Positions 14,004 through 51,820 of a stretch of DNA of 64,000 nt are shown piece by piece. A model generated the notes under the pieces. That model searched no databases and had not been told where the DNA came from. It was given only the letters and a program-made list of their open reading frames with translations. Numbering within the stretch: the stretch's first letter is position 1; every line of letters begins with the position of its first letter. The stretch is from a candidate division WS6 bacterium OLB20. Its GTDB lineage: Bacteria; Patescibacteriota; Dojkabacteria; B142; OLB20. Location of the stretch: contig JYNZ01000003.1 of NCBI GenBank assembly GCA_001567355.1, forward strand, positions 179,991 to 243,990. Reading direction: 5' to 3'. The translations under genes were made by a program, and so were the position numbers.

Positions 14004-14106
14004 GTTGACACGCACCGATCCGCGATATAAGCCCATAGTTACAAACCGGATGCTTGTCGTTTATTGCAGGAGGCAGTATGCTAAATAGCATAGAACGTTT
14101 TGCTAA

Positions 14107-15348: not shown

Positions 15349-15354
15349 TCTGAC

Positions 15355-16239: not shown

Positions 16240-16374
16240 TATACACCTTGACCGCACCCTCTGAATTGACTACACTTTTTTCAGCACTAGTACTGTTACA
16301 AAAGCCTTTTGTACAAACAAAATTCTGCCTACACGTATGCGACCCGTACATTCGCATGTACGGCAAGCATTATC

Positions 16375-30108: not shown

Positions 30109-31017
30109 CTACTGTAACACCTCGTCTTCGGGGAAGCTTACCGGTGTGCCGGTAATAGTTGGCTGGGTGAAGTCCAGATCTGACGAGTCCCCGTCAAAAA
30201 ACGAACCTCCATTAAGAAATCTGTTCTCAAGGAAATCAATCACAAACTGGTTAGGCACCACCTGCTCAGAAATTCGGGTATAGATACCGTCCAGATCAAC
30301 ACCCTCGTCAACAAAAAACTGGTACTTAACGAGATCCAGCTGTGCACCCCATGATGAACTGCCATCATCCTCTTCGATAAGATTAAGGCTCATCTCACGA
30401 ACAATAAAAAAGTCCTCACCCTGGTAGAGATCGTTCAGAAATGAACGGAAACCATCGAAAGTACCACTGAATCCGAATTCCGACGGTATCTCGATCAGAA
30501 TAAGTCCTTCCGTGACTTCTGCTTCATTCGGATTCTGGTCAATCAGATCCTCTCCCAGCAGCGACGAATCAAGATTCACAGCCCTGAACTCTGCAGTATC
30601 AATAACACGCTGTCGGAATGCAACCACCTCGGATGTACCGGTTGGCACTATCTCATTAATCTTGCTGATGATCTGCTGACGCGTCAGCTGCTCAGCACGC
30701 AGCGCAATCAGACGCTCGATCCGTTCATTGACAGCCTCATCCTCCTCACGCAGAACATTTATCTCATCAATTGTTGTAAAGATACGCTGGATGTTAGGAA
30801 TTACAGTAAACAGGATCAAACCCACAAAGACCACAAAACTGATAAGTGGCAGGGCATAAAACCTGATTGCCTTCCAGGTTTCGGACCAGTCAACAGATGT
30901 GGCATCCTCATCAAAGGAGATCTCAACAAACTCTGTCTGTGACTCACCGCTCAGCACACCCGGTGCTGATTGTGTCTGCTGTTCGTCTGTTGCGGGTGTT
31001 TGTGGTTCTGCTGCCAT
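30109..31017 (-). CDS. pilO: type IV pilus assembly protein PilO-like
   Basis: Single TM (ALPLISFVVFVGLILFTVI), then a coiled coil and a periplasmic domain. Start/stop coupled to pilN. Confidence 0.55.
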   Translation of the reverse strand: MAAEPQTPATDEQQTQSAPGVLSGESQTEFVEISFDEDATSVDWSETWKAIRFYALPLISFVVFVGLILFTVIPNIQRIFTTIDEINVLREEDEAVNERIERLIALRAEQLTRQQIISKINEIVPTGTSEVVAFRQRVIDTAEFRAVNLDSSLLGEDLIDQNPNEAEVTEGLILIEIPSEFGFSGTFDGFRSFLNDLYQGEDFFIVREMSLNLIEEDDGSSSWGAQLDLVKYQFFVDEGVDLDGIYTRISEQVVPNQFVIDFLENRFLNGGSFFDGDSSDLDFTQPTITGTPVSFPEDEVLQ

Positions 31018-31644
31018 TACTGCTGGATAAGATCATTAACTGCGACATCGTCATCAATCTCAACAAAGTTGAAGCTGATGCGCCCCTCAACACGCCTGTC
31101 TGCCTCAAGATCAGTCAGAGGTGCTGACCCTTCATCCGATGATACCTGGGCATTATTAAGCAACACATCCTGGATACCGTCGTATGAGGTAAACCGCCTT
31201 GTGATTTCTGCCATCTGCCGGTACGAAGCTGTAGTTACTGTTACATTGTACTTACCATCCCGGTCGCGGCCGTATCCTTTGATTACAACGCCATCCACAG
31301 GTACCGGAAACAAAGTCTCAGTAAGCTGAAAAACCCGCTCCGGAGCGATATCAAGACCAATAACGTTTGAAAGTGCATTGGTTTTGTGCACCAGCTCTCC
31401 GTTAAGGCGGAGGACATCACTGTATTCATTCTCAATAATAGCTTCCTTATTGGCAATCGAGACCTCCCAGTTAAGTTTGTGCCGGTCCATGACAAGGGTA
31501 TTAAACAGAATGAGAGCAAACCAGAGACAGACAGCAAACAGAGGCAGGACCGCTGTAAACACCGAACTGCGGTCTCGTTCTTCCTCCTTTTGTACCTCCT
31601 CATCAGATTTCTGCGGGAGAAGGTTAAACGTAAAAGGTCTTCAT
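31017..31644 (-). CDS. pilN: type IV pilus assembly protein PilN (5' frameshift)
   Basis: Track ORF 31017..31562 starts at GTG inside the TM helix. The same frame upstream reads RPFTFNLLPQKSDEE..., and NLLP is the PilN N-terminal signature. ATG at 31644 (MKTFYV*) is in another frame. Removing one T from CCTTTTACG gives MKTFTFNLLPQK.... Confidence 0.6.
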
Positions 31645-31645
31645 A

Positions 31646-32686
31646 TTACTGCGTTTTCAGAGCAAGACCCACACTGACGGTAAATCCGACAGTCGAGAGC
31701 TGGGCGACATCCGATTTGATCTTTCCTGCGATCTTAAGCCCTGCGACCGGATCGGTAACCTCAGCCTGGATTCCCAGGTTCGTAGACAGATACTGTGCAA
31801 GTCCCGGCAGCTTGGCACCATCCCCGACAACATAAATCTGCTTGGGTGTGCTTTCCTGCAGGTGGGCGCGGAAGTAGTTGAGTGTTTTGTTTATCTCGTT
31901 AATAATGATCTGCATTACCGGTGCCAGCGCTGCAGCTATCTTTCCGTCAGCCTGATCAGGCACAAGACCATAGGCACGTTTATACTGCTCAGCCTGACTG
32001 TACTGCAGACCGAATTCAGCTGAAATTGCCTTTGTCAGCTCATCACTCCCGGTCCCGAGACTTTGCGAGAAGATCGGAAACTTACCTTTGATTACGCTGA
32101 GATCAGTACCATTCGCTCCAAAATCAATAACCAGCACACTGTCAGAACCGGGGCGGTTAAATGTGATCGAACGCGCTGTCGCCATTGTTTCTGTCTCCAG
32201 TGCTATCAGCTCAAGTCCGGCTTTGCTGATAATTTCCATGTACTTATTAACTACGGTTTTCGGAGCTGCCACCAGCAGAGCCTGGATGAGATTGCGACCC
32301 TCAACGTTTTTTCTGGCGATAGGGATGTAATCAAGCTGCACATCTGACGGTGGGATCGGCAGATACTGCTTGGCTTCGTAGAAAAGTGACTGCTCAAGCT
32401 GGTCTTCCGGAAGATCAGGCAGCAGAATCAGACGGGTGAAGATAGAGGCCTCCGGCATTGCTGCGACCACGTACTTACTGCTGATGCGTGCCGCATCACG
32501 GATCTGTTTGATCTTGTCTGCAAGAATCTGTTTTGAGTTGTCATCCTCTGCCGCAACGGCACTGAACTCAGTGTCGATGCTTCCGATAGCCTCGAGTACA
32601 GCATCATCTGGTCCTTTAACAGATGTCCTCGCCACCTTTATGGTGTGGTTGCCAATATCCAGTCCAAAGAATTCGGGTAGGTTCAT
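31646..32686 (-). CDS. pilM: type IV pilus assembly protein PilM (actin-like ATPase fold)
   Basis: FGLDIGNHTIKVA...VLVIDFGANGTDLSVI...IYVVGDGAKLPGL are the PilM/FtsA phosphate-binding motifs. Confidence 0.75.
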   Translation of the reverse strand: MNLPEFFGLDIGNHTIKVARTSVKGPDDAVLEAIGSIDTEFSAVAAEDDNSKQILADKIKQIRDAARISSKYVVAAMPEASIFTRLILLPDLPEDQLEQSLFYEAKQYLPIPPSDVQLDYIPIARKNVEGRNLIQALLVAAPKTVVNKYMEIISKAGLELIALETETMATARSITFNRPGSDSVLVIDFGANGTDLSVIKGKFPIFSQSLGTGSDELTKAISAEFGLQYSQAEQYKRAYGLVPDQADGKIAAALAPVMQIIINEINKTLNYFRAHLQESTPKQIYVVGDGAKLPGLAQYLSTNLGIQAEVTDPVAGLKIAGKIKSDVAQLSTVGFTVSVGLALKTQ

Positions 32687-32801
32687 GAGCAGTTACGAAT
32701 ATTCATACACTATTCTATGGTGTGTGGTTTGAAGAATCAAGCCGCTTTGTGGGTACAAAAATCTTGCAGCGGTGTATTGATTGAGCAATAATGTCTGTTA
32801 G

Positions 32802-33080
32802 ATGACCAAGTCAACTGTCCCTACAGTGTTATTGTTACTTGCGGTAATCACCCTTATTGCCGGTGGTTTTTTCTATCTGTTCGCACGCGAGCAGCGGCAG
32901 GCGTCGCAGGCAGCGGCAGATCTTGATCAGGATCTGTATGGTTATCCATTTGAGACGCCGACCGATTCGACGTTCACCGAGATTACCCGCGGGACTGTGC
33001 AATCAGTTTCAACATCTGTTGATCTCCGCGACAGACCACGTAATCCAGAGTCTCCAGCTCAGGCGCGATCCCGTCAGTAA
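32802..33080 (+). CDS. small membrane-anchored protein
   Basis: N-terminal TM VPTVLLLLAVITLIAGGFFYLF. 92 aa. Confidence 0.35.
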   Translation: MTKSTVPTVLLLLAVITLIAGGFFYLFAREQRQASQAAADLDQDLYGYPFETPTDSTFTEITRGTVQSVSTSVDLRDRPRNPESPAQARSRQ

Positions 33081-33130
33081 CACTTCGCAGCAACGGCAGC
33101 GATTTCGAATACCGTTTCGATGAGAGTGCT

Positions 33131-33367
33131 GTGCCGGTTCCGGTTGTTGTCCGCGACTGCAGTAAGGCAGAGGAGGGCAACTGTCCTGATTTTGATGTCT
33201 ATCTTACTGCAAGTGACAGCCAGAAGGCGGAAATGATAACAGGAACATTTGCCGGACTTAGCATCACACAGCTGGGGTTTCTTAAAGCCGGTGATGAAGT
33301 CATGATTCTCTCCGAACAGAATAACAGCAACTCAGTTACCTATACTGTTTTTACCGAGAAGCAATGA
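33131..33367 (+). CDS. small hypothetical protein
   Basis: 78-aa ORF with a GTG start. Its end overlaps the next gene start (ATGA). Weak. Confidence 0.3.
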   Translation: MPVPVVVRDCSKAEEGNCPDFDVYLTASDSQKAEMITGTFAGLSITQLGFLKAGDEVMILSEQNNSNSVTYTVFTEKQ

Positions 33368-33909
33368 AACAGGCAGCATCAATCACACTCGCAATCGTTC
33401 TGCTCACCGGTGCGGCAGTGTTGTTTTACCTTGGCTGGCAGGAACTGCAGCAGATCCCTTCGGTCACTCCCGGCACAACGTCAGAATTTAAGCTACCGGA
33501 TGGTTTTTGCATACCCGAGTCAGACAGCTGTGTGATCACACACCATGCTGAGGCCCGGCTTGCCGGCAGTATGCTCAAAAGCGCCGAAGGAGACGTTGTA
33601 AATCTCCTGCCGACTGCTGATCCATTCAGATTCTCGGCAGGGTCAGATGTGACCGGGATGCTGACACTTATCGAAGGAGAAGGCGATGAATCGGTGGCTG
33701 TCCCTGTAAGCTATGACGAGTTAATCAGTCTGTCTGCCGAACGCTGTGTCCGGATGCAGATCAGTTATCTGTACCGTGTCGCATCAGCTGTCACAGTTGA
33801 TACAACCGAACTGACACTTCGAGATTCGCTGCTGAAAATGCGACCATGCGCAACCGAGACAGCCACCGGAACAGACCCGCAATTGATTTTTGAACTGCTT
33901 AACAGATGA
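33364..33909 (+). CDS. membrane-anchored extracytoplasmic protein (first gene of T4P-adjacent operon)
   Basis: Signal-anchor ITLAIVLLTGAAVLFYLGW. ATGA overlaps on both sides. Confidence 0.5.
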   Translation: MKQAASITLAIVLLTGAAVLFYLGWQELQQIPSVTPGTTSEFKLPDGFCIPESDSCVITHHAEARLAGSMLKSAEGDVVNLLPTADPFRFSAGSDVTGMLTLIEGEGDESVAVPVSYDELISLSAERCVRMQISYLYRVASAVTVDTTELTLRDSLLKMRPCATETATGTDPQLIFELLNR

Positions 33910-36496
33910 AACCGAATATTCTGCTTACAATTGTTTTCTCTGCCCTGATAAGCGCAGCTTTCGGATTATTTGCGGCTTCACCTGCCGATGCAGCCATCTC
34001 GTACGCCGGCGGCTGGTATACAAACCTGTGCGGTAACAGCACGGCTGATGCCTACAACTGCCCGGCTAATTGCAACCCTTATAACGGCAGTTGCAGCGGC
34101 AGCTACGTCTACAAATTCACCTGCAACGGACAGACGAATGAGTGTGTTTCAAACGGCACCGGCCCCAGTACGTTTCAGAGTTTTGACACAGGTATCTGCA
34201 ATCAGACACAGCAGATCGATGTCTTTAACCAGAACTGCGGACCGGTCAGCAACTGGCAATGTCCAGGCACAAGTGCTCTGACGGGATTCATGGTGTGGTA
34301 CAAACCATCGTGCTGTCAGAACACATGCCAGGGGGCCCGAGACCCCGAAAAACCGGGCAACCCGTATCCGCATAATGTCACACTCAACAGTTACACAGTC
34401 AACTTCAGCTGGAGTCACAATGATTTCGGCAGCTGCGGAGGCAACACCTGCAACAACACCTGCAACTCCCCGGTCCCCGGCAGTAACAGGTACTCACTGT
34501 ATGTTGATGGTGTCAGAGTATACAGAGGTAATAATAAATCATTCACATACACGGTCACCGGACAGAACCATACATGGTATGTCGTTGCTCACAGCAACTG
34601 CCGCCAGCGCCAGTCAAATACATGGAGCTTCACTGTCAACAGACCCCCGACTGCAGCTGCTCAGATAACCAGTAACGCACTCTGTAATGCCAATCCGGCA
34701 TCACAGGGATGGAGTGGCGTACACCCGCTTAGGGCAGGTTCAGGAAGTGCAGGGATCAACAATCCGCTACAGGTCCGGGCGACATACACTGATCCTGATG
34801 CTCCGCCAATCTGACTCTTCTGCGTGTCTGGTTTGCCGGCACATCACGACCACCATCAAGTGTGTCCAACACTCAGTTTGCAGCCAGCGGTACGGTCCAG
34901 ATGTACAGAACGCCGCAGGGTGTAGAGACATATTATATGTTTGTTGATGCAAACACTTACGAACAGATCACACCCGGCAATGGGAGGGGCATGTGCACTG
35001 TCGCAGGCAACAACCGTGTTCAGTTCTGTAATGTAACGGCACCTCCTTCAAACGCAGTGGCTTTTGCCTATCCTGCCAGCTTCCAGCGCAGCGGTAACAG
35101 TGTGATCGTTAACTGGCAGCTGGGTCTGCTCGGAGCTTCGACGTTTCCGCGTGATAATCAGGTACATGTCCACGCAAGCGACATACCCGGGGCAAACTCA
35201 GGCTGGATTGCAGATGATCTCTGGAAGGTGGATCTTAATCCTCCAGTAGTTGGGGCGACCCTGAATCTGCTCAGTGAGACTTCGTTTAACGTTACATACA
35301 GTGCAAACGACAGCTTAAGTGGTGTACTGGCAACAGCAAAATCATGCAGCTCAAACCTGCAGGGCAACGAATCAATCGTACTGATGCAGGATGCCCCCGC
35401 TGTAAATCCCAACAGCCAGAACTTCACCGGGAGCCAGACGCGGCAGACATGTTTTGACAACGCAACAGGGCAGACCCGTTACTCTGTAAGCAACACCCCT
35501 CGTGACGGATCGTTTTCTTTTGACTGGAATGCAACTGACTATGCCTGTAACCGTGCACCATCAGTAACAGCTCAGTTGCGACTTAAAAAACCCTGGCTCA
35601 TGACAGTCGATGGTGATCTGTTCTCCAGGCTGGGGATAAGTCAGACAACAATTGCAGATATCGAACGTATTCAGAGTCTTTTTCTGACAGACCAGCACAA
35701 CAGGGTACCGTACCTATCAGATTACAACTTCATGAGCGGGCAGAACTCGCTGCCTGCTAGAGACTCTGAACTCGACTTTGCAGTAAGATCCTACCTTGAT
35801 GCAAACGGAAAACCCAGGGACGAACTGGCGTACGAGAGCTGGTACGACCTTGCTGATGCCCAGCTCGAATCAAGACTGCAGGCGTCACAGCAGCTGACTG
35901 CTCAGGGACCGGTAACGTTTGCTGATGTTACGACGCACCAGATCGCGCAGACTCTTGGATCGGCATCTATCCAGCCCGATGGTTTTCCGGCTTCAGAACC
36001 TCAGGATCGCCTGAATGTAATCAGGGTGCAGGGCGACCTGCGTCTTAACAGGGTTACCTGCAACACAAAAACTGTCTTCCTTGTCAGCGGAAACCTTACG
36101 CTTGAGCCAGAGATAGGTCTGCAGGATAATCCCGCTGCTGATATTGTTAACGGCTGTCTGTTCCTGGTTAAAGAGACAACAACCATCCTTCCCGGTCAGT
36201 CTGCGGGAACACCCGGCGACACGACACCAGACTTTGACACTGTTGCAGGATTTATTGTCACCAGGTCCATTCAGATCCCTCCAGATCCTCAGTTCAACGC
36301 ATTGCGTGTAACAGGCTCCATTATCGCCAGCGAAAATAATACGTTCGACAGGGATGCAGGTGTTGTACTTAACCAGCTGTCACCGTCAGAGATCATCTAC
36401 TACGATGGGGGACGGTATATGCATCTGTTTGGCGAAGTACTTTCAATGCCGGTCAGTTTTAACATCGTTGAGAAACCGTTTCTTGATTCGTTCTGA
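33906..36496 (+). CDS. giant Cys-rich secreted protein, paralog A (~860 aa), with an apparent 1-nt deletion near 34803
   Basis: Track ORFs 33906..34814 and 34862..36496. The frame -1 translation bridging them (ANLTLLRVWFAGTSRPPSS) aligns with paralog B (ADLNRLEVWLGDNNSPAPG). Signal peptide, about 30 Cys, an FN3-like segment, and a conserved C-terminal module ending NIVEKPFLDSF. Confidence 0.6.
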
Positions 36497-37011
36497 TGCC
36501 AGCTAAATTATCCGTATTCATCCGATTCTATGTCATCGCAGTGCTGTTGCTGGCGCTGGCCGTATATCTGTCATCAGGAACACAACCGGCAAGACAAGCC
36601 TACACGGGCAGCATTGCTGTCGATCCACAAGCAGGTGAACGGTTTATCACGCACTCAGTCAGTACAGGAACGTTTGTATCGCTAACACGCCCGGAGAGAG
36701 AAAATGATTTTTTTATACTGACACTTACAAGCCCGGAAGGAGAGCAGCAACACAGCTTTGGATCCGGGGAATTCAACTTTGATGCAGTTGTACTGCGTAC
36801 CTGCGCAAATGAGTGTCCTGACTTTCAGACATATATCAACAGCGAAGAGTATCAGTCGCGCCGCCCGCTTGAACCGTTTACGCTGATTACACTCGATGAC
36901 CTGAGAGATGGTGATACAGTCTCACTGGTCAGATCTGCTGCAGGTTCGGTTGCGCAGTCGTATATTCAGGAACAGTCAGAAGTTAAGCTATTTGTAACTC
37001 GCTCACGATGA
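36496..37011 (+). CDS. small membrane-anchored paralog family protein 1
   Basis: N-terminal TM. TLTSPEGEQQHSF...LRTCANECPDF...LFVTRS. Paralogous to 37503..38081. ATGA overlap. Confidence 0.5.
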   Translation: MPAKLSVFIRFYVIAVLLLALAVYLSSGTQPARQAYTGSIAVDPQAGERFITHSVSTGTFVSLTRPERENDFFILTLTSPEGEQQHSFGSGEFNFDAVVLRTCANECPDFQTYINSEEYQSRRPLEPFTLITLDDLRDGDTVSLVRSAAGSVAQSYIQEQSEVKLFVTRSR

Positions 37012-37502
37012 AGACCCAACTGCTCACAGCTGCAATTGCAACAGTCTGCGCATTCTTTCTGCTTGTTGCCTCACAGCCTGCAGCGCCTGAACCCGTTGAT
37101 CTGTCTGTCATTGCCGAAGACACAGGACTCTGTGATAACTCGGACCTGTGCTTCATCGAGTACCAGACAAGGGGTGAATTCACCCGGGGCATGATCGAAA
37201 CCAGGCACCACAGCATTGACCCCGGGGGAGAGGCGGGCTTTGATGTTCAGATCCTCAAGCGCAACAGACAGGACGGGGCGTCTGTATATGAGATCATGCA
37301 ACAGGAGAGTACGGGTAGTGATCCGTTGTGTCTTGATATTCTGCAGGTGGAATATCTTAAAATCCCTGAGGGACAGATCAGTAATGACGATGGAATATTT
37401 GAGCAGGGTATGACCGATGTCTTTGCATATGAGTGCTTTATTGACGGCGAAGAGAGAAGTGATTATCTTGATAATACTATCTTGCTTCAACTGCTCGATT
37501 AA
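37008..37502 (+). CDS. small membrane-anchored family protein 2
   Basis: Signal/anchor LLTAAIATVCAFFLLVASQPA. Cys pairs. ATGA overlap. Confidence 0.45.
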   Translation: MKTQLLTAAIATVCAFFLLVASQPAAPEPVDLSVIAEDTGLCDNSDLCFIEYQTRGEFTRGMIETRHHSIDPGGEAGFDVQILKRNRQDGASVYEIMQQESTGSDPLCLDILQVEYLKIPEGQISNDDGIFEQGMTDVFAYECFIDGEERSDYLDNTILLQLLD

Positions 37503-38081
37503 ATGAAACTGCAAACCGGCACTGTGCTGTTTGTCGTAGCGCTGCTGTTCTTTATCGGCGCAGTTCTGTTTTACGCTGTCCGATCATCAGGCAGCGAACC
37601 GATTGTTACCGAGACTGCTGTATCAGCAGCAGGCTTTCTGTTTGCACCCGAAGAGATGTACTCGCCGCAGGGCGGATTTCAAGGTCCGGCGGGAACACTT
37701 GCTGTATCACAGGAGGTCTTATCGGGCACAATCACCCAGGCAGTATTCAGTTCCAACAAATTCGCCCGCTTCAGTGAGGACTACGCCAGCAACGCCTTCC
37801 TGACACTCACCGTCAGGGGTCCCGAAGGTGACGAGACCAGTCTGACCCTTGAAGACCCCGGCGAGACACTGTTCAGGGTCTGCACGGATGAGGCATCCTG
37901 TCCTGGATTCGCTGATTATTTTGGAGGGCTTGCTGATGCTGAGTTCCGCTATGGTCTGGCAGGAGAAATCCTGCTGGGTGACGAGGTGGTGATTTTCCAT
38001 AGCGTATTTGTCGGATCCGAGCAGGATGCCGCAGCAATCAGCAGCGATTATGATATTTATGTCACACGATATGAACCGTAA
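37503..38081 (+). CDS. small membrane-anchored paralog family protein 3
   Basis: LTLTVRGPEGDETSLTL...FRVCTDEASCPGF...IYVTRY parallels protein 1. Confidence 0.5.
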   Translation: MKLQTGTVLFVVALLFFIGAVLFYAVRSSGSEPIVTETAVSAAGFLFAPEEMYSPQGGFQGPAGTLAVSQEVLSGTITQAVFSSNKFARFSEDYASNAFLTLTVRGPEGDETSLTLEDPGETLFRVCTDEASCPGFADYFGGLADAEFRYGLAGEILLGDEVVIFHSVFVGSEQDAAAISSDYDIYVTRYEP

Positions 38082-38652
38082 TTCTCAGACACTGATAATC
38101 ACAGCAGCAGCACTCATCCTGTTTATCTCCGGTGGAGTGTTTGCAGTTATGGGGCTATCATCCTCAGCATCAGGAAACGATCCTGCTGTGACACTGCTGG
38201 ACAGCATCGGCAGTGAAAATCAGTATCGGGCCTGTTCAGGAAGCGCTGCCGAGGTATGCTTCAGCTGGCAGTATCTGACAGGCAGCTTCGCAGACAACAC
38301 GCTCACCGTGGGCGATGCAAGTCTCACGCTGTCCGGCAGGTACAACCGTGAGACAGATATTGAAGAGATTTCGCGCGATCTTAATGTGATCTATTACAGC
38401 AGGCCCGAGGGTGATCAGCTGACCGGATACCTGCAGACCGATAAGGATACGTTTGTGACTGGATCGACCGGATCCTGTGTTGAGGGTGCTTTCTTCTATT
38501 TTGACAGATTTCCGGCAGGGCTGGACCTGCTGAAGCTGCCTGTAGACGATGGTCACAGAGGCTTTCTGGAGCTGTATCCGTGTGACAGTAACCCGGCACA
38601 GGAACAGTTTTTCAGCTATACTAGACTTGAGCGCCAGCTGATTGATTTATGA
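38071..38652 (+). CDS. small membrane-anchored family protein 4
   Basis: ATG at 38071 overlaps the upstream stop (ATGAACCGTAA). TM IITAAALILFISGGVFAVMG. The track ORF starts earlier at 38008. Confidence 0.45.
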   Translation: MNRNSQTLIITAAALILFISGGVFAVMGLSSSASGNDPAVTLLDSIGSENQYRACSGSAAEVCFSWQYLTGSFADNTLTVGDASLTLSGRYNRETDIEEISRDLNVIYYSRPEGDQLTGYLQTDKDTFVTGSTGSCVEGAFFYFDRFPAGLDLLKLPVDDGHRGFLELYPCDSNPAQEQFFSYTRLERQLIDL

Positions 38653-41600
38653 AGACAAACCGCGCAAATCTGCTGTTCCTGATCTTCGGCATACTAGTTG
38701 CTGTCACGTTTGTAACGGCCAAATCAAATAATGCAGACGCACTCTCAATGGGTGTCGGCTGCTGGACACGCTGGAAGCAGCAGTACAGCATGGGATGGCA
38801 CTGCGACGGTTCCGCATCTGTTCGCAACAGGCCCTATGATGTATGGGTCTGGCACTGTCAGCAGGCAAATCTGAGCTGGTGTGATGCCAACAACGGCGGA
38901 GTGCTTATCACGAAACAGTCGTTCGGTGGGCCTGTGCCGGTTGAATTCACTTCTTCCGCAAGTGGTTACGGAAACTGCGGAAGCGTTCAGATGGACATCG
39001 GTCTTCCCGGTGCTTCTGACCACGGTGTAGCTGGAGGCGCAATTTACTCCAACGGCACAAGCTGCTCAAGTCCGCCACAACCGACAACACCTCCAAGTCA
39101 GTGCGGTAACTGGAACGATACACAGTTCTGGACCGGCTGCTGGGGCGAACCATACCCCGGCTGCGGGGGTCTTGGTGGATGGATCAGCGGTAACGACGTG
39201 ACCAGCCGCAACCCGAGCAGACCGTTTCCGCTTGATATCAACTGCTTTACCAACCTGGGATCTGCATGGACATCTGCGACTGTATCACTTGTTTACAATG
39301 GAAGCACAATCGGAAATTACAACACCTGGGCACCGCGAAACATCAATATCAGCTCACCGGGAACATACGAGGCGTTGTGCCGGGACCGTGTAGCACCAAA
39401 CTGTTACGACATTGACCGCTTCACCGTGCAGTGCGTCAATACCTGCGGCAGTGCCAGAGACCCCAATGCACCCACACTCAGCTCGCCGTCGAACGGTGCA
39501 ACACTGACAAACAGGAATGTGACGCTGACATGGTCTCACAGCGGATTTGGACGCTGCGGCGGCAACAGCTGCTCGGGCGGTTGTAACAGTACAAATCCGA
39601 CGAGCCTGAGTGTAACCCTTAACGGTCCTGGTGGAGGTACGGTCGTACTGCCCGGCGGCTCAACATCATATACATTTACAAATCTGACAGGCAAAAACTA
39701 TACCTGGTATGTTACGGCCCGCAACGGCTGCAATCTGACTGAACAGTCTGTTGTCAGATCGTTTGTCATCAACTCACCACCGACATTTAACGGATCAGTC
39801 ACAAGCAACCAGATATGTACAGCGGGTGGAGTAACCACAGGCGGATCAGCGCAATGGAGCGGCATCCACGCCAACTCAGTCATCGGAAACGGGACCAGCG
39901 GCATCAACAATCCTCTGACTGTGCGTGTGACCTACGATGATCCGGATGGAAGAGCTGATCTGAACCGTCTGGAGGTCTGGCTTGGCGATAATAACAGCCC
40001 GGCGCCGGGTGCAACAGCTGTCTCGACTTCGGCAAGCGCGTCCCTTGCATATGGCGGAGGATCAAATCATACACTCTATGCAGCAGGAGGAAGCAGTCGA
40101 TCAATAGACAGTAACAACTCCGGAAACCAGGCAGTACTCACATCAGGATCAAATACACAATCAATTGTTGCTGTTTCAGGTTCAACAACCGGCACAGCAT
40201 ATGCGCTGCCCAGGATTGTCTCAACCACAGCAACTTCAGTTGTTGTTGACTGGCAGCTTGGTCTGTTTAACTCTTCAGCGTTTGACGGTGACGTCCGGAT
40301 CTATGCACGCGCAGTTGACCAGTCCGGTGTAGCAGCAGGGTGGAGTATTATTGACACCTGGAGGGTCGACCTTCGCTATCCCAACCCCGTTGCCAACCTT
40401 ACTCTGCGTAACCAGACAGCATTTGATGTTACGTACTCTGCTAATGACGCCACCAGTCCGGTACTTTCATATTCCAAGACCTGTACCTCGAGTCTTGCAG
40501 CCAGCGAGTCGATCACACTCAACCAGGTCGCGCCTGGCGCATCACCAAACAGCCGGACGTTTACCGGCAACCAGAATCAGAATCCGTGTTTTGATAATCT
40601 TGCAGGCACGACCTACTACACTGTCAATAACACACCCCGGGATGGAACGCTGCGGTTTAACTGGACAGCCAAGGACTCCGCCTGTAACACCGCACCCTCG
40701 ACCTCAGCCGATCTTCGCCTGAAACCGCCATGGATGATGACTGTCGACGGTGATACATTTACCAGTCAGGGTATCAGGCAGACATCAATCAATGACATTA
40801 ACACCATTAACAACCCGAACCTGCCGGACCAGCACAACCGTGTACCGTATCTATCCGACTACAACTTCATGCTTGAGACGGGCTCGCTGCCTGCCAAGGA
40901 TACCGAGCGAGACCTTGCCGTTGACGATTACGATGACCTCAACGGAAAGCCAAGGGCCGAGTTCGGTTTTCCGGACTGGTTCAGTTTTGTCGATGCCCGG
41001 ATTCTCCGCAATCTGCCGGCAAATCAGATCGCAACAGTTAACGGTCCGCAGACATTCAGCGATGTAACATCACAGCAGGTGGCACAGGCACTCGGCATGA
41101 CGGGTGTAGAGATCAACGGATTTGCGGGCACAGGTGATGCGAAAGTAAATGTCATCAAAGTGATCGGCAATCTGACCTTAAACAGGGTCAGCTGCAACAC
41201 AAAGACTATCTTTCTGGTAACGGGCAACCTAACAATCAACCCCGAATCGCGAATATCAGACGACCCGCGCAACGATGTAATCAACGGGTGCATGTATGTT
41301 GTGGCAGGCAGGACAACGGTACTGCCCGGACAGAATGCCGATGTTCTTGGAGCTGCAACCGAGCGGGCGAGGGTGCTTGGCACCAGCGCTCAGGTTCTGG
41401 CTGCATCATTTGAGACTGCAGCCACAACTGCTGCCAGAAACAACAACGGGCAGTGTGTCGTCGGTATCCTGACAAACCATGCGGATGTCTATAATTCAAA
41501 TTATGATACCGGTTATGGCGTCGGCCGGGCAGAGATTCAGGCCCTGGTGCCGCAAGGCTATGTTGACCAGGTGAAACTGCTAACACAGATCTCACCGGCA

Positions 41601-42998
41601 ACCGAGTACAACAACATCGATCTGCTGTTTGTTAATGAGGCAAACCTGACCAACCTTCCTCAGGGTGGAGACCCGAATAATGCGCTTTCCTATCAGTGCG
41701 GCGTAGCCGGATATGTCCGTGCTGAAAACCCCAACCTCTATCCGGGCATGATCAATGCTGTATACGCTAACTGGTTGAATGGTATGAATATCATCATGTC
41801 AGCGGACAACGGAATCTCATCACAACGACTTGGCAGCACCAGCACATGTTTTGATTTTGCCAACTCCCTGACCGGTCCTCTGAATAATGCCATAATGAGC
41901 AATCACAGCAATGCGTTTAATTTCCTTTCTGTCGGGGATGCAAGCACAAACAGGCTGGTTGCCGGACAATACGACCCGACCGACAACGGAGGAGTGGACA
42001 CGAGAGTAATCTCAAGTGGTCCGGCTATGCTGAGCGGCGCATTTCAGGATTACAGAGGTGGCAGGGATACTCCAGGAAATATAGTCCATAACGGTGCAGG
42101 CGGAATAAACGCTCAGTGTCTCTCGACGGTGGTGCTTCAGGACAGGGTGGACTGGCCGACGATAAACCGCTTTAACGCATGTACGCTCGCATACGTTCCT
42201 CCCACCTCAACCCGCGGGTACTATGTCATCGATTCTAATGCAGCAACTGCAGTAAGATCCAAATGGGGCAGCATGCTGACCGAGATACCCGACTGCAATC
42301 CACCCACCCCGACACCCACTGCGGTGACAACCCCGGTAACGACTCCTCCAGCAAATGCGCCCACACTTAACAGCGTCAGCGCAACCTGCACCGGTACTGG
42401 TAACAACTACAACATCAGTGCTTCATGGACCGGAGGAGGGACGGGCACATTCTGGTTTGATATTGATGATCAGAATCCACACGCAGTCACCTGGTTTAAC
42501 CATGATAACGGTAACAACCGGAGCATGAACGTCAATCAGAACAACTTCCAGCAGTATACGGAGGCCGGTAATTCCAGAAACAGTGGAGTCCGTCTGGCTC
42601 TGACTCCAGGTGCAACCTACTACGCTAAGGTTTATGATGCACAGCGTGCTGTTGCTTCAAACTACAGGAGCTTTACGGCCCCGGTATGCTCAACACCTAC
42701 CCCGACACCGCCGCCGATTGATACCAACGCTGATTACGATACGCTGGATGGCTTTATCCTGACAAATTCGTTTGAAAGCCCGTTTGATTCACAGTATGAT
42801 GGACTAAGGATCGTCGGTGCAGTCATTGCAATGGAGAACAACAACTTCAACCGGGATTTCGGAGTTGTTCTCAACCAGCTGACACCATCAGAGATCATTT
42901 ATTACGACGGGGGACGCTATATGTACCTGTTTGGCAGAATACTGTCAATGCCCAACAGTTTTAATATCGTCGAGAAACCTTTTATTGATTCGTTCTAA
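38649..42998 (+). CDS. giant Cys-rich secreted protein, paralog B (1449 aa)
   Basis: Signal peptide. Cys-rich N-terminal region. An FN3-like block (PSNGATLTNRNVTLTWSH...YTWYVTARNGC). Pro/Thr linkers (PPTPTPT, TPTPTPPP). C-terminal module ending NIVEKPFIDSF. Roughly 450 aa are collinear with paralog A. Confidence 0.6.
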   Translation: MKTNRANLLFLIFGILVAVTFVTAKSNNADALSMGVGCWTRWKQQYSMGWHCDGSASVRNRPYDVWVWHCQQANLSWCDANNGGVLITKQSFGGPVPVEFTSSASGYGNCGSVQMDIGLPGASDHGVAGGAIYSNGTSCSSPPQPTTPPSQCGNWNDTQFWTGCWGEPYPGCGGLGGWISGNDVTSRNPSRPFPLDINCFTNLGSAWTSATVSLVYNGSTIGNYNTWAPRNINISSPGTYEALCRDRVAPNCYDIDRFTVQCVNTCGSARDPNAPTLSSPSNGATLTNRNVTLTWSHSGFGRCGGNSCSGGCNSTNPTSLSVTLNGPGGGTVVLPGGSTSYTFTNLTGKNYTWYVTARNGCNLTEQSVVRSFVINSPPTFNGSVTSNQICTAGGVTTGGSAQWSGIHANSVIGNGTSGINNPLTVRVTYDDPDGRADLNRLEVWLGDNNSPAPGATAVSTSASASLAYGGGSNHTLYAAGGSSRSIDSNNSGNQAVLTSGSNTQSIVAVSGSTTGTAYALPRIVSTTATSVVVDWQLGLFNSSAFDGDVRIYARAVDQSGVAAGWSIIDTWRVDLRYPNPVANLTLRNQTAFDVTYSANDATSPVLSYSKTCTSSLAASESITLNQVAPGASPNSRTFTGNQNQNPCFDNLAGTTYYTVNNTPRDGTLRFNWTAKDSACNTAPSTSADLRLKPPWMMTVDGDTFTSQGIRQTSINDINTINNPNLPDQHNRVPYLSDYNFMLETGSLPAKDTERDLAVDDYDDLNGKPRAEFGFPDWFSFVDARILRNLPANQIATVNGPQTFSDVTSQQVAQALGMTGVEINGFAGTGDAKVNVIKVIGNLTLNRVSCNTKTIFLVTGNLTINPESRISDDPRNDVINGCMYVVAGRTTVLPGQNADVLGAATERARVLGTSAQVLAASFETAATTAARNNNGQCVVGILTNHADVYNSNYDTGYGVGRAEIQALVPQGYVDQVKLLTQISPATEYNNIDLLFVNEANLTNLPQGGDPNNALSYQCGVAGYVRAENPNLYPGMINAVYANWLNGMNIIMSADNGISSQRLGSTSTCFDFANSLTGPLNNAIMSNHSNAFNFLSVGDASTNRLVAGQYDPTDNGGVDTRVISSGPAMLSGAFQDYRGGRDTPGNIVHNGAGGINAQCLSTVVLQDRVDWPTINRFNACTLAYVPPTSTRGYYVIDSNAATAVRSKWGSMLTEIPDCNPPTPTPTAVTTPVTTPPANAPTLNSVSATCTGTGNNYNISASWTGGGTGTFWFDIDDQNPHAVTWFNHDNGNNRSMNVNQNNFQQYTEAGNSRNSGVRLALTPGATYYAKVYDAQRAVASNYRSFTAPVCSTPTPTPPPIDTNADYDTLDGFILTNSFESPFDSQYDGLRIVGAVIAMENNNFNRDFGVVLNQLTPSEIIYYDGGRYMYLFGRILSMPNSFNIVEKPFIDSF

Positions 42999-43003
42999 CT
43001 GCC

Positions 43004-43936
43004 ATGATAAATAAGCGCTATCCGGGTCAGATTCTTGTTATCGTTCTGCTTGTGCTGTCTATCCTGGGTATCTTTGTAGTCTCAATCGCCACCAGTACAC
43101 AACGGGACGTTGAAGAACGTGTCCGCAACGAAAAGTATGAACAGTACTATTCTCTGACAGAACGCAGGCTTTTGCAGCTGATCCAGGAGACAAATCTTGA
43201 TTCTACTCTCACGGGACTTGAAAATGATCTGACAAACTGTACACGTGTGGGCAACACGGGACGATACAACTGCACATACACAGATGTCTCGGAGACCGAC
43301 TCACTTGACCAGGTAAGCATAGATGTGACACTTGAAGACACCAACGAAGTCCGCCAGCTTCAGCTGCAGAAGGATCAGACATTTATGATGAACCTGCAGA
43401 ATGGCGGCAGCGGATACCGTGGTGTAATTCAGATGCAGTGGACAGGGCCCCAGGTTGCATGGGTAGTATCAATGGACTACCGTGACCTTAATGACGGCAG
43501 GTACAAGGTGATCAAGGGTGTCTATGACGGCAACCCGACCGGCTCACGTGTCTACGAGCAGGCGATTCCCAACAATAATACATTCACCTTTGAACCGCTT
43601 GTACTGAGCGGTGTCACACAGCCAGCTGCAAATGCCATGCAGTTTAATATCTCCAGCGTCGATCTGACCGGCAGCAACTGGAGACCGCTGTACCTGCGTG
43701 TTAAGCCGATTATCGCCAGCGGCGAGCTGCTGACCGAGCTTACCGTTACAGGCGGAACAGGTTTTCCCAACCAGGTGCGCACGTATCTTGGTGAAGGGAT
43801 CTCAGCAGAAGAAAGCAACACCGGAGATGACTCACCAACGGCCATTCTTGAGGTTCAGCTGCCGTTGCACCCGGCCCCGGCTGAGTTCTTTGACTACGTT
43901 CTGAGAAGCGAGAACGACGTCGTTAAACCCCGCTAG
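43004..43936 (+). CDS. membrane-anchored extracytoplasmic protein (last gene of operon)
   Basis: N-terminal hydrophobic helix QILVIVLLVLSILGIFVVSIA without a G-F-x-x-x-E prepilin motif. 310 aa. Confidence 0.45.
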   Translation: MINKRYPGQILVIVLLVLSILGIFVVSIATSTQRDVEERVRNEKYEQYYSLTERRLLQLIQETNLDSTLTGLENDLTNCTRVGNTGRYNCTYTDVSETDSLDQVSIDVTLEDTNEVRQLQLQKDQTFMMNLQNGGSGYRGVIQMQWTGPQVAWVVSMDYRDLNDGRYKVIKGVYDGNPTGSRVYEQAIPNNNTFTFEPLVLSGVTQPAANAMQFNISSVDLTGSNWRPLYLRVKPIIASGELLTELTVTGGTGFPNQVRTYLGEGISAEESNTGDDSPTAILEVQLPLHPAPAEFFDYVLRSENDVVKPR

Positions 43937-44038: not shown

Positions 44039-45721
44039 TCAGCGTGTGCAGGGACATGGTGCGTACAGTCTGCTTGCCATTGAAGTGGAGCAGCTGTTAC
44101 GTCCGTCGGTCTGCTGATAAATGATGTAGCGGTTCTGACTTGCATAATAGGTCATCAGTGGTCCGCCACCGTAGAACCCCTGACAGGTGTACTGTGACCC
44201 TGGCGCGAGGAAGCGGGACATGATATCGCAGTTACCGTACGCCGCCATTTCCTGATATCCCTGAGGATAGCATTGTCCGCCTGCCATTGCACATATCTGA
44301 TTACAGCTTGCGTCACCTGCATCACCGTTAAGCAGCACCAGACTGCCTGATGTTGTCAGATTGGGGCAGGGACTTTGCGAGCATCCGGCTGCGTACTGAC
44401 CGACATTCTGTGGAAATGTGAAGTTTGTCGGCAACTGTCCGGTCCCGGATACGCCGCAGGTAACATTCAGAGTATCTGTGCAGTTGCCGGTTCCGTTTGT
44501 ATTTGTCGCTTTACCGACCACCGTATATGTCCCTGGCGTTGACATGGTGAAGGCAGCACCACCGGCACCGGAGGATCCAGTCAGAGTCACGTTCTGACCG
44601 TTCGGGTTTGTGACGGTTATGGCAACGTCTGTTGCCCGGGTCCCCGGGAACGTAACTGGCTGAGAGGGGGGGGCATTGTGTGTAGCATAAATTTCCACAA
44701 AGGTTCCCTGACAGCTGCTGTGCTGTGCATCCTGAGGTGACCAGAACTCGGTAAATTGTGACTTCTGTAGCAGAGTTGTGAAGTTAAACGGGCACTGTGA
44801 CTGAGGATCATTCGCACAGGTAACAGAGACAGTATCCTGACAGGCAGAACCTGCGTATCCAGGGACGTTCCCTGAAAAATTATATGTCCCTGGTGTATCA
44901 AGTTGCACAGTAGTTACTGACATCTGTTGTGTCGCCTGCTGACCTGGCATTTGAACATAAAACGTGACGTCGTTTGCCTGTGCACTGCCATGCTGCGCTG
45001 CAATACGGACTGTTCTGCCGCAAGGTATTTGACCGTTAATTGCACTGATTGCACCGGTAGTTGTGTCTGTCCAGTAGAGCGTAGTGCCGGTATGAGGACA
45101 GCTCACCTGAGTCGGAGCGGCAGCTGTAGGAACTGCGGTCGGTGTGGCACCGACAAAAAAGTCACCAAGAGTAAAATTTCTGGTTGAGACTGCAATCTGA
45201 CGAACCTGGTTGGATATCTCGAAGTTGGGGTTTGTTGCTGACGCCCGCAGAGTCATCAGGATAGTGGATTTTGTCCCGTCTTCTCCGGTAGAAAGGTTAA
45301 TGTCAAAACTGAAGTCCTCAATAGTGATAAGATCCGAGGTCTCAAACAGGAGCTGATTGCCGGGTACAGAGATTTTGCAGATACGGTTGATTGCAGCAGT
45401 GTCACCGGGACAGTTGTCGGTCCAGGTAAACTCTTCGGCATGAGAGATTGTACAGCGGCTGACTGTTTCGCTCCCGTCACGAAACTCGCCGCATTCCTTG
45501 ACTATGCGGGCATTCCTGATATCGCGCTGTACAAGTGTTGTCAGTTCCGCCAGCTCTTCACGAACCTGTGTCCTGACATAGACTTTGCGGCTGACCTCAA
45601 GGTTGATAAGAATCACCTGACTGATCATGGCAATCATAATGCCGAAGATGGCAAGCGTGATCAGCGTCTCAACCAGTGAGAATCCCTGCAACCGTTTTGT
45701 CGGCAGTTTCTTCATCATCAT
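44039..45721 (-). CDS. modular minor pilin: type IV prepilin N-terminus fused to a ~500-aa Cys-rich domain
   Basis: KRLQGFSLVETLITLAIFGIMIAMI is a class III signal (G|FSLVE, Glu at +5). Large Thr/Gly/Cys-rich C-terminal domain. Overlaps the next pseudopilin gene by 4 nt. Confidence 0.6.
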   Translation of the reverse strand: MMMKKLPTKRLQGFSLVETLITLAIFGIMIAMISQVILINLEVSRKVYVRTQVREELAELTTLVQRDIRNARIVKECGEFRDGSETVSRCTISHAEEFTWTDNCPGDTAAINRICKISVPGNQLLFETSDLITIEDFSFDINLSTGEDGTKSTILMTLRASATNPNFEISNQVRQIAVSTRNFTLGDFFVGATPTAVPTAAAPTQVSCPHTGTTLYWTDTTTGAISAINGQIPCGRTVRIAAQHGSAQANDVTFYVQMPGQQATQQMSVTTVQLDTPGTYNFSGNVPGYAGSACQDTVSVTCANDPQSQCPFNFTTLLQKSQFTEFWSPQDAQHSSCQGTFVEIYATHNAPPSQPVTFPGTRATDVAITVTNPNGQNVTLTGSSGAGGAAFTMSTPGTYTVVGKATNTNGTGNCTDTLNVTCGVSGTGQLPTNFTFPQNVGQYAAGCSQSPCPNLTTSGSLVLLNGDAGDASCNQICAMAGGQCYPQGYQEMAAYGNCDIMSRFLAPGSQYTCQGFYGGGPLMTYYASQNRYIIYQQTDGRNSCSTSMASRLYAPCPCTR

Positions 45722-46254
45722 GTTGATCCTCCTGAAGTGTTGCGAAATCCAAGCAGCTCAGTGCGCTGCATGCCGTTTCTGGATGAGAAGAAGACGACAA
45801 TGGATCGCAGTTCAAATACACCGGGATCGGTCTGATTGACAAGGATCTGATTGCACATAATAAAGTTTGGCAGCTCAGACAGCCGCACCCTGAACTCGGA
45901 GTTTGAATCGCAGGTGGTGATCGGCGTCCTGCTGGTTGTCTGAACAATCTGCAGCTGACATCCGGTTGAACCGGTACAGTTTGACGGATTGACCTCACCG
46001 GTTACCCGGAATGCAAAATCACGCTGACCTGTTGGAAGATTGGTTAACAGCGGAACGACAGCAGGGGATTTCATGTACTCCATCGAGCCGATCATGACAG
46101 AATTTGCGGTATCAGCCAGCTCGTTGTCCTGAACAGTTCTCAGAGAGCTGATCGCAATGGCCACTGTTGCAATCATCGCTGTTCCAAAGATCGCTATCGC
46201 AATGATGATCTCTACAAGTCCGAATGCCTTTTTTGTTACTGCGCGTTTTGTCAT
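45718..46254 (-). CDS. pseudopilin / minor pilin
   Basis: KKAFGLVEIIIAIAIFGTAMIA is prepilin-like (Phe+1 ... Glu+5). Confidence 0.5.
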   Translation of the reverse strand: MTKRAVTKKAFGLVEIIIAIAIFGTAMIATVAIAISSLRTVQDNELADTANSVMIGSMEYMKSPAVVPLLTNLPTGQRDFAFRVTGEVNPSNCTGSTGCQLQIVQTTSRTPITTCDSNSEFRVRLSELPNFIMCNQILVNQTDPGVFELRSIVVFFSSRNGMQRTELLGFRNTSGGST

Positions 46255-46820
46255 TTTGGTGTATACGTGTTGCGCACCGAATTAATCTCGATCGGTCGTA
46301 CCGCTCCAGTCAGCTTATGCCTTACACTGAAGAGGCATGTTACCTCAGAGTAGCTGATCCGGTTACCGGTTGTTGCCTGTGTGCTGGCCTTCATGTCACC
46401 GGTGAGACTCTCAAACAGTACATCATAGCAGCCTCCGCCTGAGAGTACATACTCGATGTCACCGTAGATACTTGACTTGAGCTGCTCTGCTGTTGATGGT
46501 TCACAGGTCCATGAGGTATCGGTTGCTCCGATAGTCCGGTAGCAGAGACTTCTGGTCAGCTGGTTGTTTCTGAAACTGAGATTATAAGCATACACACGTG
46601 TCTGCGTGTTGGTGGTATTCAGGACGATATCCTTTGGAAGCGTATTGCTTTTGGCAAGGTTTCGGGTCTCTTTGATCACGCTCAGCACCTCATTTACCGA
46701 CTGGCTGAATGTAACGGTGCGCTGAAATGACACGAAACCGAAGATTGCGAGGGTTGCAGTCAGTCCGATGATTGCCATGACGATCAGGAGTTCAAAAAGA
46801 CTGAATGCGGGTAGCTTCAC
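46251..46820 (-). CDS. pseudopilin / minor pilin
   Basis: LPAFSLFELLIVMAIIGLTATLAIFGF is a prepilin-type N-terminus. Confidence 0.5.
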   Translation of the reverse strand: MKLPAFSLFELLIVMAIIGLTATLAIFGFVSFQRTVTFSQSVNEVLSVIKETRNLAKSNTLPKDIVLNTTNTQTRVYAYNLSFRNNQLTRSLCYRTIGATDTSWTCEPSTAEQLKSSIYGDIEYVLSGGGCYDVLFESLTGDMKASTQATTGNRISYSEVTCLFSVRHKLTGAVRPIEINSVRNTYTPK

Positions 46821-46876: not shown

Positions 46877-47671
46877 TCAGAAAATAACAGGAATCACTAT
46901 CTGCCCGGCTATGAGCCAGAGCAAAGATCCGGCAGCAAGCACCGTGGCGTAAGGGACCTGGACACGAGGATCTCTTTTTCGTATGAGCAGCACAATGCCT
47001 GCTACTGATCCCGCCAGAGAGCCGAAAAGAACGGCCCAGAACATTCCTGCAAAACCAAGATACGCAGCAGTTGCAGCGGTCAGTACGACGTCCCTGACCG
47101 TAAGCCCGCTGCGGGGTATAAACCGGATGAGCCCGATCAGTAGTGCGAACAGTCCTGAACCGGCTATTGATGAGATCAGATCAGACGCAGTACGAAATCC
47201 ACTCAGGTATTCTGCAGAGACAATCAGCAGAGTCAGCAGAGAAAAAATAACCACTTCCTTTTTGGGCAGTGACATGTACTGATAATCATAGGATGCAAAA
47301 AATATCATCCCTGTCACAAACACTAATGCTCCGGCAAGGGGAAGTACAAACAGCTGCTGCGCGGGATTGTAGAACAGGACAAAAACAAACAGCACAATTA
47401 CAGCTGCTGCCAATTCAATAGCAGGATAGAGGAGAGGAAGACGTTCACCACTGGTTTTGCTTCTGCCGCCGGAAAGAATATAGGAAAACACCGGTATCAG
47501 ATCTGTGCCGGTAAGCACCTCTCCCGTACCGTCTGCAAAAGACCTGCCGCCCAGCGGCATGTTTCTGTAGACACGGTATGTCAGCATATTAACAAAACTG
47601 CCCAGCGCCGCGCCGAGGATCAGCCCCAGAACGTAAGTTATCCCGAACAGCAGCAGTGTTGCTCCTTCCAT
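46877..47671 (-). CDS. pilD: prepilin peptidase (A24 family) PilD
   Basis: Polytopic. FVNMLTYRVY..IPVFSYIL..G.....ERLPLLYPAIELAAA matches the A24 peptidase core. The Cys-box zinc motif appears absent. Confidence 0.6.
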   Translation of the reverse strand: MEGATLLLFGITYVLGLILGAALGSFVNMLTYRVYRNMPLGGRSFADGTGEVLTGTDLIPVFSYILSGGRSKTSGERLPLLYPAIELAAAVIVLFVFVLFYNPAQQLFVLPLAGALVFVTGMIFFASYDYQYMSLPKKEVVIFSLLTLLIVSAEYLSGFRTASDLISSIAGSGLFALLIGLIRFIPRSGLTVRDVVLTAATAAYLGFAGMFWAVLFGSLAGSVAGIVLLIRKRDPRVQVPYATVLAAGSLLWLIAGQIVIPVIF

Positions 47672-48144: not shown

Positions 48145-48181
48145 TGTAATGTATCAAATCCGTTATCAGATTAAACAAATA

Positions 48182-48204
48182 CTGCCGGGTAATCAACCCG
48201 GCAG
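48182..48204 (-). terminator. intrinsic terminator between the tandem pilin genes
   Basis: CTGCCGGG-taatcaa-CCCGGCAG forms an 8-bp stem. On the minus strand it is followed by TATTTGTTT. Confidence 0.5.
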
Positions 48205-48230
48205 TCTTGTGTCTATCAAATCCCGAAAGC

Positions 48231-51785: not shown

Positions 51786-51820
51786 GGTTGTATCGGACTA
51801 AGCAAAAACTAATTCAACTG

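Follow-up and report, generated by a model that had tools for sequence, protein, structure and literature searches.

Paired genes of two orphan families precede giant proteins in a type IV pilus locus of Dojkabacteria

What do small membrane-anchored proteins do when several of them are encoded in a row, next to giant proteins, in a type IV pilus locus? This question is raised by a window of 64,000 nucleotides (the whole stretch of DNA analysed here, positions 179,991 to 243,990 of contig JYNZ01000003.1, assembly GCA_001567355.1) from candidate division WS6 bacterium OLB20, where four small consecutive genes stand within such a locus. The protein of the third has the exact sequence of the NCBI entry 'hypothetical protein TR69_WS6001000584' of this bacterium, whose lineage, Dojkabacteria, is within the Patescibacteria, also called Candidate Phyla Radiation (CPR). 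These organisms are believed to make contact with hosts chiefly through type IV pili, which in Saccharibacteria drive host binding (PMC11623550). The locus offers testable candidates for how large non-pilin proteins reach the pili of cells that have no periplasm. We found that these four genes amount to a two-gene cassette, X-Y, present twice in tandem. The cassette forms the front of a module that is repeated, [X-Y-Big], where Big is a giant protein with a signal-like N-terminus.

The four genes lie on the forward strand: X1 (protein 1, P1; 36496-37011, 171 amino acids, aa), Y1 (protein 2, P2; 37008-37502, 164 aa), X2 (protein 3, P3; 37503-38081, 192 aa), and Y2 (protein 4, P4; 38071-38652, 193 aa). 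The start of Y2 is the ATG at 38071 and not the TTG at 38008, where a mechanical list of open reading frames (ORFs) puts it, on the basis of a Logan gene call and of an ortholog in another contig (L006); the resulting overlap with X2, of 11 nt, is the one seen in that ortholog. The close packing extends to the whole operon, from a further X gene upstream (X0) to the gene that closes it (D), with each start overlapping or abutting the preceding stop. Consecutive, overlapping ORFs with a single N-terminal hydrophobic helix apiece had been described in the first-pass annotation, and this description is correct: each protein has one such helix (Kyte-Doolittle 19-residue mean of 2.1-2.9), and the same measure revealed no second transmembrane (TM) segment in any of the four.

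The four had also been taken for paralogs, which they are not. P1 and P3 can be aligned, as had been claimed (blastp, 26% identity over 146 aa), and they contain the motifs LT..PEG, RxC..CPxF, and a C-terminal VTR. Blastp finds no similarity between P2 or P4 and P1 or P3, nor between P2 and P4, and these last two proteins share a pattern of four Cys with the product of an upstream gene (33364-33909, Y0). P2 and P4 belong to a separate family, Y, with no detectable relation to the family X of P1 and P3, and the array is (X-Y)(X-Y). Homology between X and Y was rejected: hhalign gives a probability of 29% that concerns the TM region only, and cross-family scores of hidden Markov models (HMMs) are at most 5 bits once the TM region is removed. 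Within families, similarity at the sequence level is far above chance, since leave-one-out HMMs regain every X and Y member with the TM region removed (E-values between 1e-4 and 1e-24 when a database size of 1e6 sequences is assumed; 3e-13 for Y1 and 1e-8 for Y2 without its TM region).

In family X, which includes P1, P3, and X0, the loop R-x-C-x(3-8)-C-P-x-F holds the two invariant Cys; it takes the form RxC-x3-CPxF in X1, where it is predicted to be an invariant disulphide loop of the beta domain. The family also has an sGTV strand, a GD(E) motif, and a ..VTR at the C-end. Family Y, with P2, P4, and Y0, has four invariant Cys, the first two in a G-F-C-x(5-7)-C motif near the start of the domain and the last two spaced by 34-35 residues in 10 out of 10 members, and a C-terminus of the form L-L-(D/N/Q). 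In Y1 the Cys are C42, C48, C108, and C143, and the conserved tail is ..ERSDYLD..LLD. The disulphides predicted are Cys103-Cys107 in X, and Cys42-Cys48 and Cys108-Cys143 in Y. The ectodomains of both families are acidic. X0 and Y0 form a third X-Y pair (32802-33909, forward strand), unnoticed in the first reading of the sequence. Y0 (33364-33909) encodes 181 aa, and X0 (32802-33367) is interrupted by a frameshift near 33040-33077, its N-terminal part being in the frame of 32802 and its C-terminal part in the frame ending at 33367; both pieces match the X HMM (E 8e-28 and 6e-23). An HMM search of the window revealed no other copy outside this locus. A DNA repeat search found none among the X and Y copies and picked up only diverged segments of Big1 and Big2, so the duplication of X and Y is old and not the work of a recently recombining cassette. 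Searches of Pfam and NCBIfam with all operon proteins and every family member gave nothing consistent, and PDB sequence and profile searches with X and Y gave no match; we took single-member matches to Imm42 (E 0.0016) and WxL (E 0.0013) for noise. Both X and Y are orphan families that had not been described before, and the X-Y cassette is real.

How far do the cassettes extend beyond OLB20? A concatenated X+Y profile, compared by HMMER with every one of 1.84 billion representative proteins, returned 16 of them, seven from this window (five genes and the two pieces of X0). The nine non-self relatives, four X and five Y, make for a narrow reach, and as far as these representatives show, X and Y are restricted to a subgroup of Dojkabacteria, which are ultra-small bacteria. 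A word-indexed protein search with P3 alone returned only P3 itself, and one with a 9-row concatenated profile returned only the X protein P0011, its candidate list being swamped. Every relative with a readable context occupies the same place in another Dojkabacteria contig, in an array [X-Y-Big]n-D beside pilM. The array is X-Y-Big-Big-D in L003 (CP129475, a complete Dojkabacteria genome found via PilM), X-Y-Big-D in L008, and X-Y-Big-X-Y-Big-D in L010; L007 has pilM beside X-Y-Big, and L006 and L012 have the end of an X1-type gene, a Y1-type gene, and an X2-type gene (and the start of a Y2-type gene). Genome-contig scans gave no confirmed locus with a Big alignment and two loci with PilM, of which L003 was the useful one. 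In assembly GCA_046753765 (L002 and L004) the locus is split across contig ends and the X and Y genes are unreadable.

The position of the X and Y genes is conserved in at least six other contigs, and the order of the four genes in at least two other organisms. Y is always directly 3' of X, usually with a 4-nt ATGA overlap. Each OLB20 pair has a closest relative of its own elsewhere: Y0 is 33% identical to P0014 (L007), X1 is 39% identical to a fragment in L006, X2 is 45% identical to P0008 (L006), Y1 is 31-32% identical to P0012 (L006) and P0015 (L012), and X0 is 41-55% identical to P0011, an intact protein of 190 aa encoded beside pilM in L007. The three pairs therefore predate the split of these organisms and were kept separately. 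The distance matrices of X and Y are correlated (Mantel r 0.58, p 0.002), so X and Y were inherited and duplicated as a unit. The four small ORFs are real genes, since six or more other contigs share their order and frame, at identities of 15-45% and with the Cys invariant. The multiple alignment proposed as a check of the earlier claims finds similarity within the families, and the ORFs are conserved in related genomes.

The cassettes change faster than anything around them. Identity to OLB20 is 72-93% for PilM, 47-59% for D, 32-41% for Big, 15-45% for X, and 14-33% for Y. In L007, where PilM is 93% identical with a non-synonymous divergence (dN) of 0.06, the orthologs of X0 and Y0 have a dN of 0.4-0.7 (0.72 for Y0); X and Y change about 12 times faster than PilM at the non-synonymous level. 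Where synonymous divergence (dS) is still measurable, between X0 and P0011, dN/dS is about 0.25-0.3. X and Y are therefore constrained genes, yet the fastest-evolving part of the locus, and X-Y, duplicated in divergent sets, evolves an order of magnitude faster than the pilus machine itself. Between L007 and positions 31680-33970 of the window, synonymous sites are saturated (pS 0.78) although the PilM proteins are 93% identical, so the divergence of X0 and Y0 reflects much weaker constraint or diversifying selection rather than a recent recombination boundary. The gradient of divergence fits what is expected of module-specific partners of a fast-evolving surface protein.

Which kind of proteins are these? 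AlphaFold2 models were computed from alignments of 7-8 sequences. The model of X1 (predicted local distance difference test, pLDDT, 73.6; predicted TM-score, pTM, 0.57) has a helix at residues 3-28, a low-confidence stretch at 29-45, and strands with two short helices at 49-170. That of Y1 (pLDDT 67.5, pTM 0.52) has a helix at 2-21, low confidence at 26-39, strands at 48-142, and two short C-terminal helices. Both families are thus predicted to be anchored by their N-terminus, from which a flexible tether (about 15-45 residues long) leads to a beta domain outside the membrane that is small, acidic, and stabilised by disulphides. The formation of disulphides by the conserved Cys is plausible because CPR genomes encode MdbA-like extracytoplasmic disulphide oxidoreductases (PMC6744442). 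The earlier description of X and Y as periplasmic or extracellular proteins is right in placing these small, membrane-anchored proteins with conserved Cys outside the cytoplasm, and in linking their function to the giant neighbours and to a pilus system. The idea that they could be chaperone/usher-like subunits is not supported: none of 20 X and Y members matches PapD-like chaperones (PF00345/PF02753) or ushers (PF00577) at E <=1, the models show single small beta domains, and CPR bacteria are reported to have neither outer membrane nor secretin (PMC6744442).

Big1 (33906-36496, forward strand) encodes about 850 aa split into ORFs of 302 and 544 aa by a 1-nt frame change, a base being missing after ..DPDA (around 34800), where the family consensus is DPDG; its counterparts in relatives are intact, with 868-910 aa. 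Big2 (38649-42998, forward strand) encodes 1449 aa, is rich in Cys (32), begins with a hydrophobic segment that resembles a signal, and is conserved in its C-terminal region. The small genes had been placed between two giant proteins, which is accurate for the downstream one; the upstream 544 aa are the C-terminal piece of the interrupted gene. The two pieces of Big1 match Big2 in blastp (2e-35 and 5e-129), so the two are paralogs, and their last 92 aa are 68% identical versus about 50% elsewhere. Nine Big sequences have no match in Pfam, the PilY1/Neisseria_PilC beta-propeller (PF05567) included, and we found no NCBIfam or PDB match. Big has the layout of PilY1-type proteins: it is large, starts with a signal-like segment (judged from its sequence without a predictor), is encoded with minor pilins, and has a conserved C-terminal and a variable N-terminal part. 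We presume that it is a pilus-associated, PilY1-like adhesin. Docking of one end on conserved parts of the pilus would be expected to leave such a conserved C-terminus with a variable remainder. The conserved C-terminal region of about 450 aa ends with ..PSEIIYYDGGRY..F. When metagenome contigs were scanned with an alignment of five Big sequences, a single short and unrelated contig came up (L005, 2.9 kb, devoid of pilus genes), which shares only this C-terminal domain, in a protein of 477 aa. Since it occurs there away from pilus genes, the C-terminal region may be an independent, more widespread module.

The operon is closed by D (43004-43936, forward strand, 310 aa), whose N-terminus, GQILVIVLLVLSI, is invariant in five genomes (orthologs in L002, L003, L008, and L010) and whose last 60 or so aa are highly conserved. 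D has a pilin-like helix after a Gly, G-QILVIVLLVLSI, and lacks Glu5; by inspection of its sequence, it looks like a Glu5-less cap pilin of the GspK/PilX type. It has no Pfam match, and its residues 158-248 have a weak PDB profile match to botulinum HA33 (E 0.012).

The genetic context is that of a type IV pilus: pilM-N-O, then X0-Y0-Big1-X1-Y1-X2-Y2-Big2-D, then minor pilins, PilD, pilins, PilC, and two ATPases. The first three genes are on the reverse strand. pilM (31646-32686; PF11104, PilM_2, E 4e-46) is divergent from the X0 operon, and the assignments of PilN (31017-31644, with an FNLLPQ motif) and PilO (30109-31017) were made from position and, for the former, the motif, both lacking a Pfam match. 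At the other end, the pilus genes between 44039 and 53650, also on the reverse strand, are convergent with the X0-D operon: a 560-aa minor pilin and two others (44039-46820, N_methyl), PilD (46877-47671, A24_N_bact/Peptidase_A24), two pilins (47671-48743, N_methyl), PilC (48763-49986, T2SSF), and two T2SSE ATPases (49986-53650, T2SSE and MshEN).

What could an anchored X-Y pair do in front of Big? We tentatively favour, with somewhat less than even confidence, that X and Y are a translationally coupled, membrane-tethered pair with a role in retaining, chaperoning, or loading the giant protein encoded next to them. The two proteins would be made in equal amounts through translational coupling and would form a heterodimer tethered to the membrane. 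This pair would capture Big, encoded directly downstream, hold or chaperone it at the membrane of the periplasm-less cell, and hand it to a priming complex that D and the minor pilins form on the platform of PilMNO and PilC; pili would then differ in their adhesins according to the X-Y-Big set. Retention would be needed because a protein exported by Sec would otherwise be lost from a cell with no periplasm. In favour of this role, X-Y precedes Big in recurrent modules, at every locus recovered, and the block lies between pilM and the genes for pilins, PilD, PilC, and the ATPases.

Several observations weigh on the other side. First, the contacts between X and Y, between either of them and Big, and between Big and the pilus are ones we infer from context. 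Second, copy numbers are not strictly 1:1, since L003 has one pair for two Big, and OLB20 has three pairs (one with a broken X) for two Big, X1-Y1 being followed by no Big of its own. Third, Big resembles neither PilY1 nor any known adhesin domain. Fourth, signal anchors were told from cleaved peptides by eye, and Y1 has a plausible cleavage site (VAS followed by Q); the structural models are of moderate confidence. Fifth, pilN, X0, and Big1 are frameshifted in OLB20, and with several genes of the locus interrupted in this way the pilus system may not be fully functional in this organism.

These interruptions are part of a wider set, with four changes of frame by +/-1 within about 13 kb: in tyrS, the PilN-position gene, X0, and Big1. 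In the PilN-position gene, no start codon lies upstream of FNLLPQ, and a TTTT run (31600-31660) puts the ATG at 31644 out of frame by one T. tyrS, a B3_4+TyrRS fusion, is intact in L010 (665 aa) and here falls into two parts, 22121-23314 and 23347-24114. The interruptions in pilN, X0, and Big1 are identical in a Logan contig (SRR29904086_5790), which has 0 mismatches to positions 26496-47011 of the window over 20,516 nt, a span that excludes the tyrS junction. They may be due to sequencing error, real decay, or phase variation.

A proposal of retention and loading gains from comparison with known systems. In type IVa pili, sets of minor pilins and PilY1 act in priming and make up the tip, and one genome can have several of them (PMC7541494, PMC8833165). 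Such sets (three in Myxococcus xanthus; fimU-pilVWXY1E in Pseudomonas) resemble X-Y-Big in combining several small anchored proteins with one large secreted protein of the Sec type, encoded inside or beside pilus genes, in the possible presence of more than one divergent set per genome, and in having a large protein with a conserved C-terminus and a variable remainder (PMC7541494, PMC8833165). Unlike minor pilins, X and Y have no prepilin motif, alpha1 helix, or pilin fold, Big has no PilY1/PilC domain, and the true minor pilins of this locus are encoded separately, on the other strand. In M. xanthus, the small accessory protein TfcP is needed for the function of PilY1.1 (PMC8833165). Encoded with a set of PilY1 and minor pilins, it is a small non-pilin extracytoplasmic protein that acts on the large tip protein without belonging to the fibre, which is the role proposed for X-Y. 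TfcP differs in being a soluble non-canonical cytochrome c; X and Y have a TM anchor and a beta domain, lack a haem motif, and are unrelated to it in sequence or fold. The [X-Y-Big]n-D operon has no annotated domain anywhere, and we regard its members as lineage-specific pilus accessory genes, organised like sets of adhesins and minor pilins and built from non-pilin parts. If X and Y are loading or retention factors, they would constitute a new type of accessory protein for pili and could serve to mark the adhesin cassettes of Dojkabacteria; if not, they are a small lineage-restricted pair of surface proteins. A bolder extension, which we regard as unlikely, is that [X-Y-Big]n is a new, swappable adhesin cassette for the type IV pili of CPR bacteria, in which a non-pilin X-Y heterodimer would replace the coupling of minor pilins and PilY1 found in diderms, select the adhesin that is mounted, and in this way determine the host range of what are presumed to be episymbionts.

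Among the other explanations, the one that fares best makes X and Y extra stator or alignment parts of the pilus machine. PilP and GspC have a membrane anchor, a long flexible linker, and a small all-beta domain. X and Y have the same gross architecture, with an anchor, a disordered linker, and a beta domain of about 100 aa, and X-Y is the first pair encoded next to pilMNO in every locus, so they could be functional analogues that join PilN/PilO to the wall or to the emerging fibre in place of serving Big. The single X-Y pair found with two Big genes in L003 would also be easier to understand. We consider this quite unlikely: the likeness concerns architecture, with no sequence or fold similarity to the HR domain (PF04351/T2SSC) and no PilN, PilO, or T2SSM Pfam domain or INLLP motif in the X and Y members; the locus already has separate PilN- and PilO-position genes, one of them with FNLLPQ; and stator parts fit poorly with the multiplicity and hypervariability of X-Y.

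X and Y could otherwise be ordinary fast-evolving surface proteins, for example of the envelope or associated with an S-layer, that happen to be co-transcribed with pilus genes and have no specific role in the pilus. Their rate of change, given above, is in line with this. We assign it a low probability because in all seven contig sets the genes are found between pilM and Big, D, or the minor pilins, with start/stop overlaps, and because in the window they have copies in this locus only.

The first-pass annotation had offered a further possibility, that the four proteins are minor-pilin substitutes devoid of the canonical prepilin motif. In its developed form, X and Y would be non-canonical, PilD-independent pilin-like subunits, with their TM helices in the pilus core and linking Big to the tip. 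They are encoded in a pilus locus that adjoins minor pilins, each starts with its only hydrophobic helix, their Cys are conserved, and large tip candidates lacking a PilD signal were proposed in Saccharibacteria (PMC11623550). The absence of the motif was upheld, with no G-x4-E in 19 X and Y N-termini scanned by regular expression and no match to N_methyl (PF07963) in any member. Yet the five pilins of the same locus carry the motif, with N-termini of the form K(A/G)F(T/S)L(V/F)E.., and match N_methyl. Furthermore, the TM helix is the least conserved region of X and Y, whereas the N-terminus of D is invariant; a tether follows the helix in place of alpha1C; and the structure prediction that had been suggested shows neither the alpha-beta roll of pilins, in which a continuous alpha1 helix some 50 residues long packs against a beta sheet, nor any match to a pilin fold. 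This makes a pilin-like role very unlikely.

Could the pair instead bind what the pilus brings back? X and Y would then be tethered receptors for retrieved cargo (nucleic acid or glycans of the host), comparable to ComEA, which is reported missing from most CPR genomes and whose absence suggests alternative DNA receptors (PMC6744442). The best matches of X in a fold search were oligonucleotide/oligosaccharide-binding (OB) folds, including single-stranded DNA-binding proteins (SSBs) and the sugar-binding B subunits of AB5 toxins. Compared with OB-fold domains (SSB, anticodon-binding domains of aminoacyl-tRNA synthetases, AB5-toxin B), X has marginal scores, 5-18% identity, and an acidic ectodomain, and nothing in the likeness points to shared function or ancestry. 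For Y1, the fold search gave no significant match, and Foldseek against the PDB only spurious kinesin matches. With acidic ectodomains arguing against DNA binding, we give cargo reception a slight probability. Finally, that the ORFs are not genes and their similarities are due to chance or low complexity, which the database label 'hypothetical protein' might invite one to think, is practically negligible given their conserved order and frame with invariant Cys, their recovery by leave-one-out HMMs, and the dN/dS of X0.

Two other features of the window deserve mention. A second cluster of probable surface proteins is encoded at 12171-21839 (forward strand), with products of 610, 413, 294, 451, and 1392 aa; that of 294 aa is Fn3-like, that of 451 aa has two CarboxypepD_reg domains, and most of them match no Pfam family. 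Near the right end, after gyrB/gyrA, a gene on the reverse strand (61279-62418) encodes a tyrosine recombinase/phage integrase (PF00589 with a SAM-like N domain).

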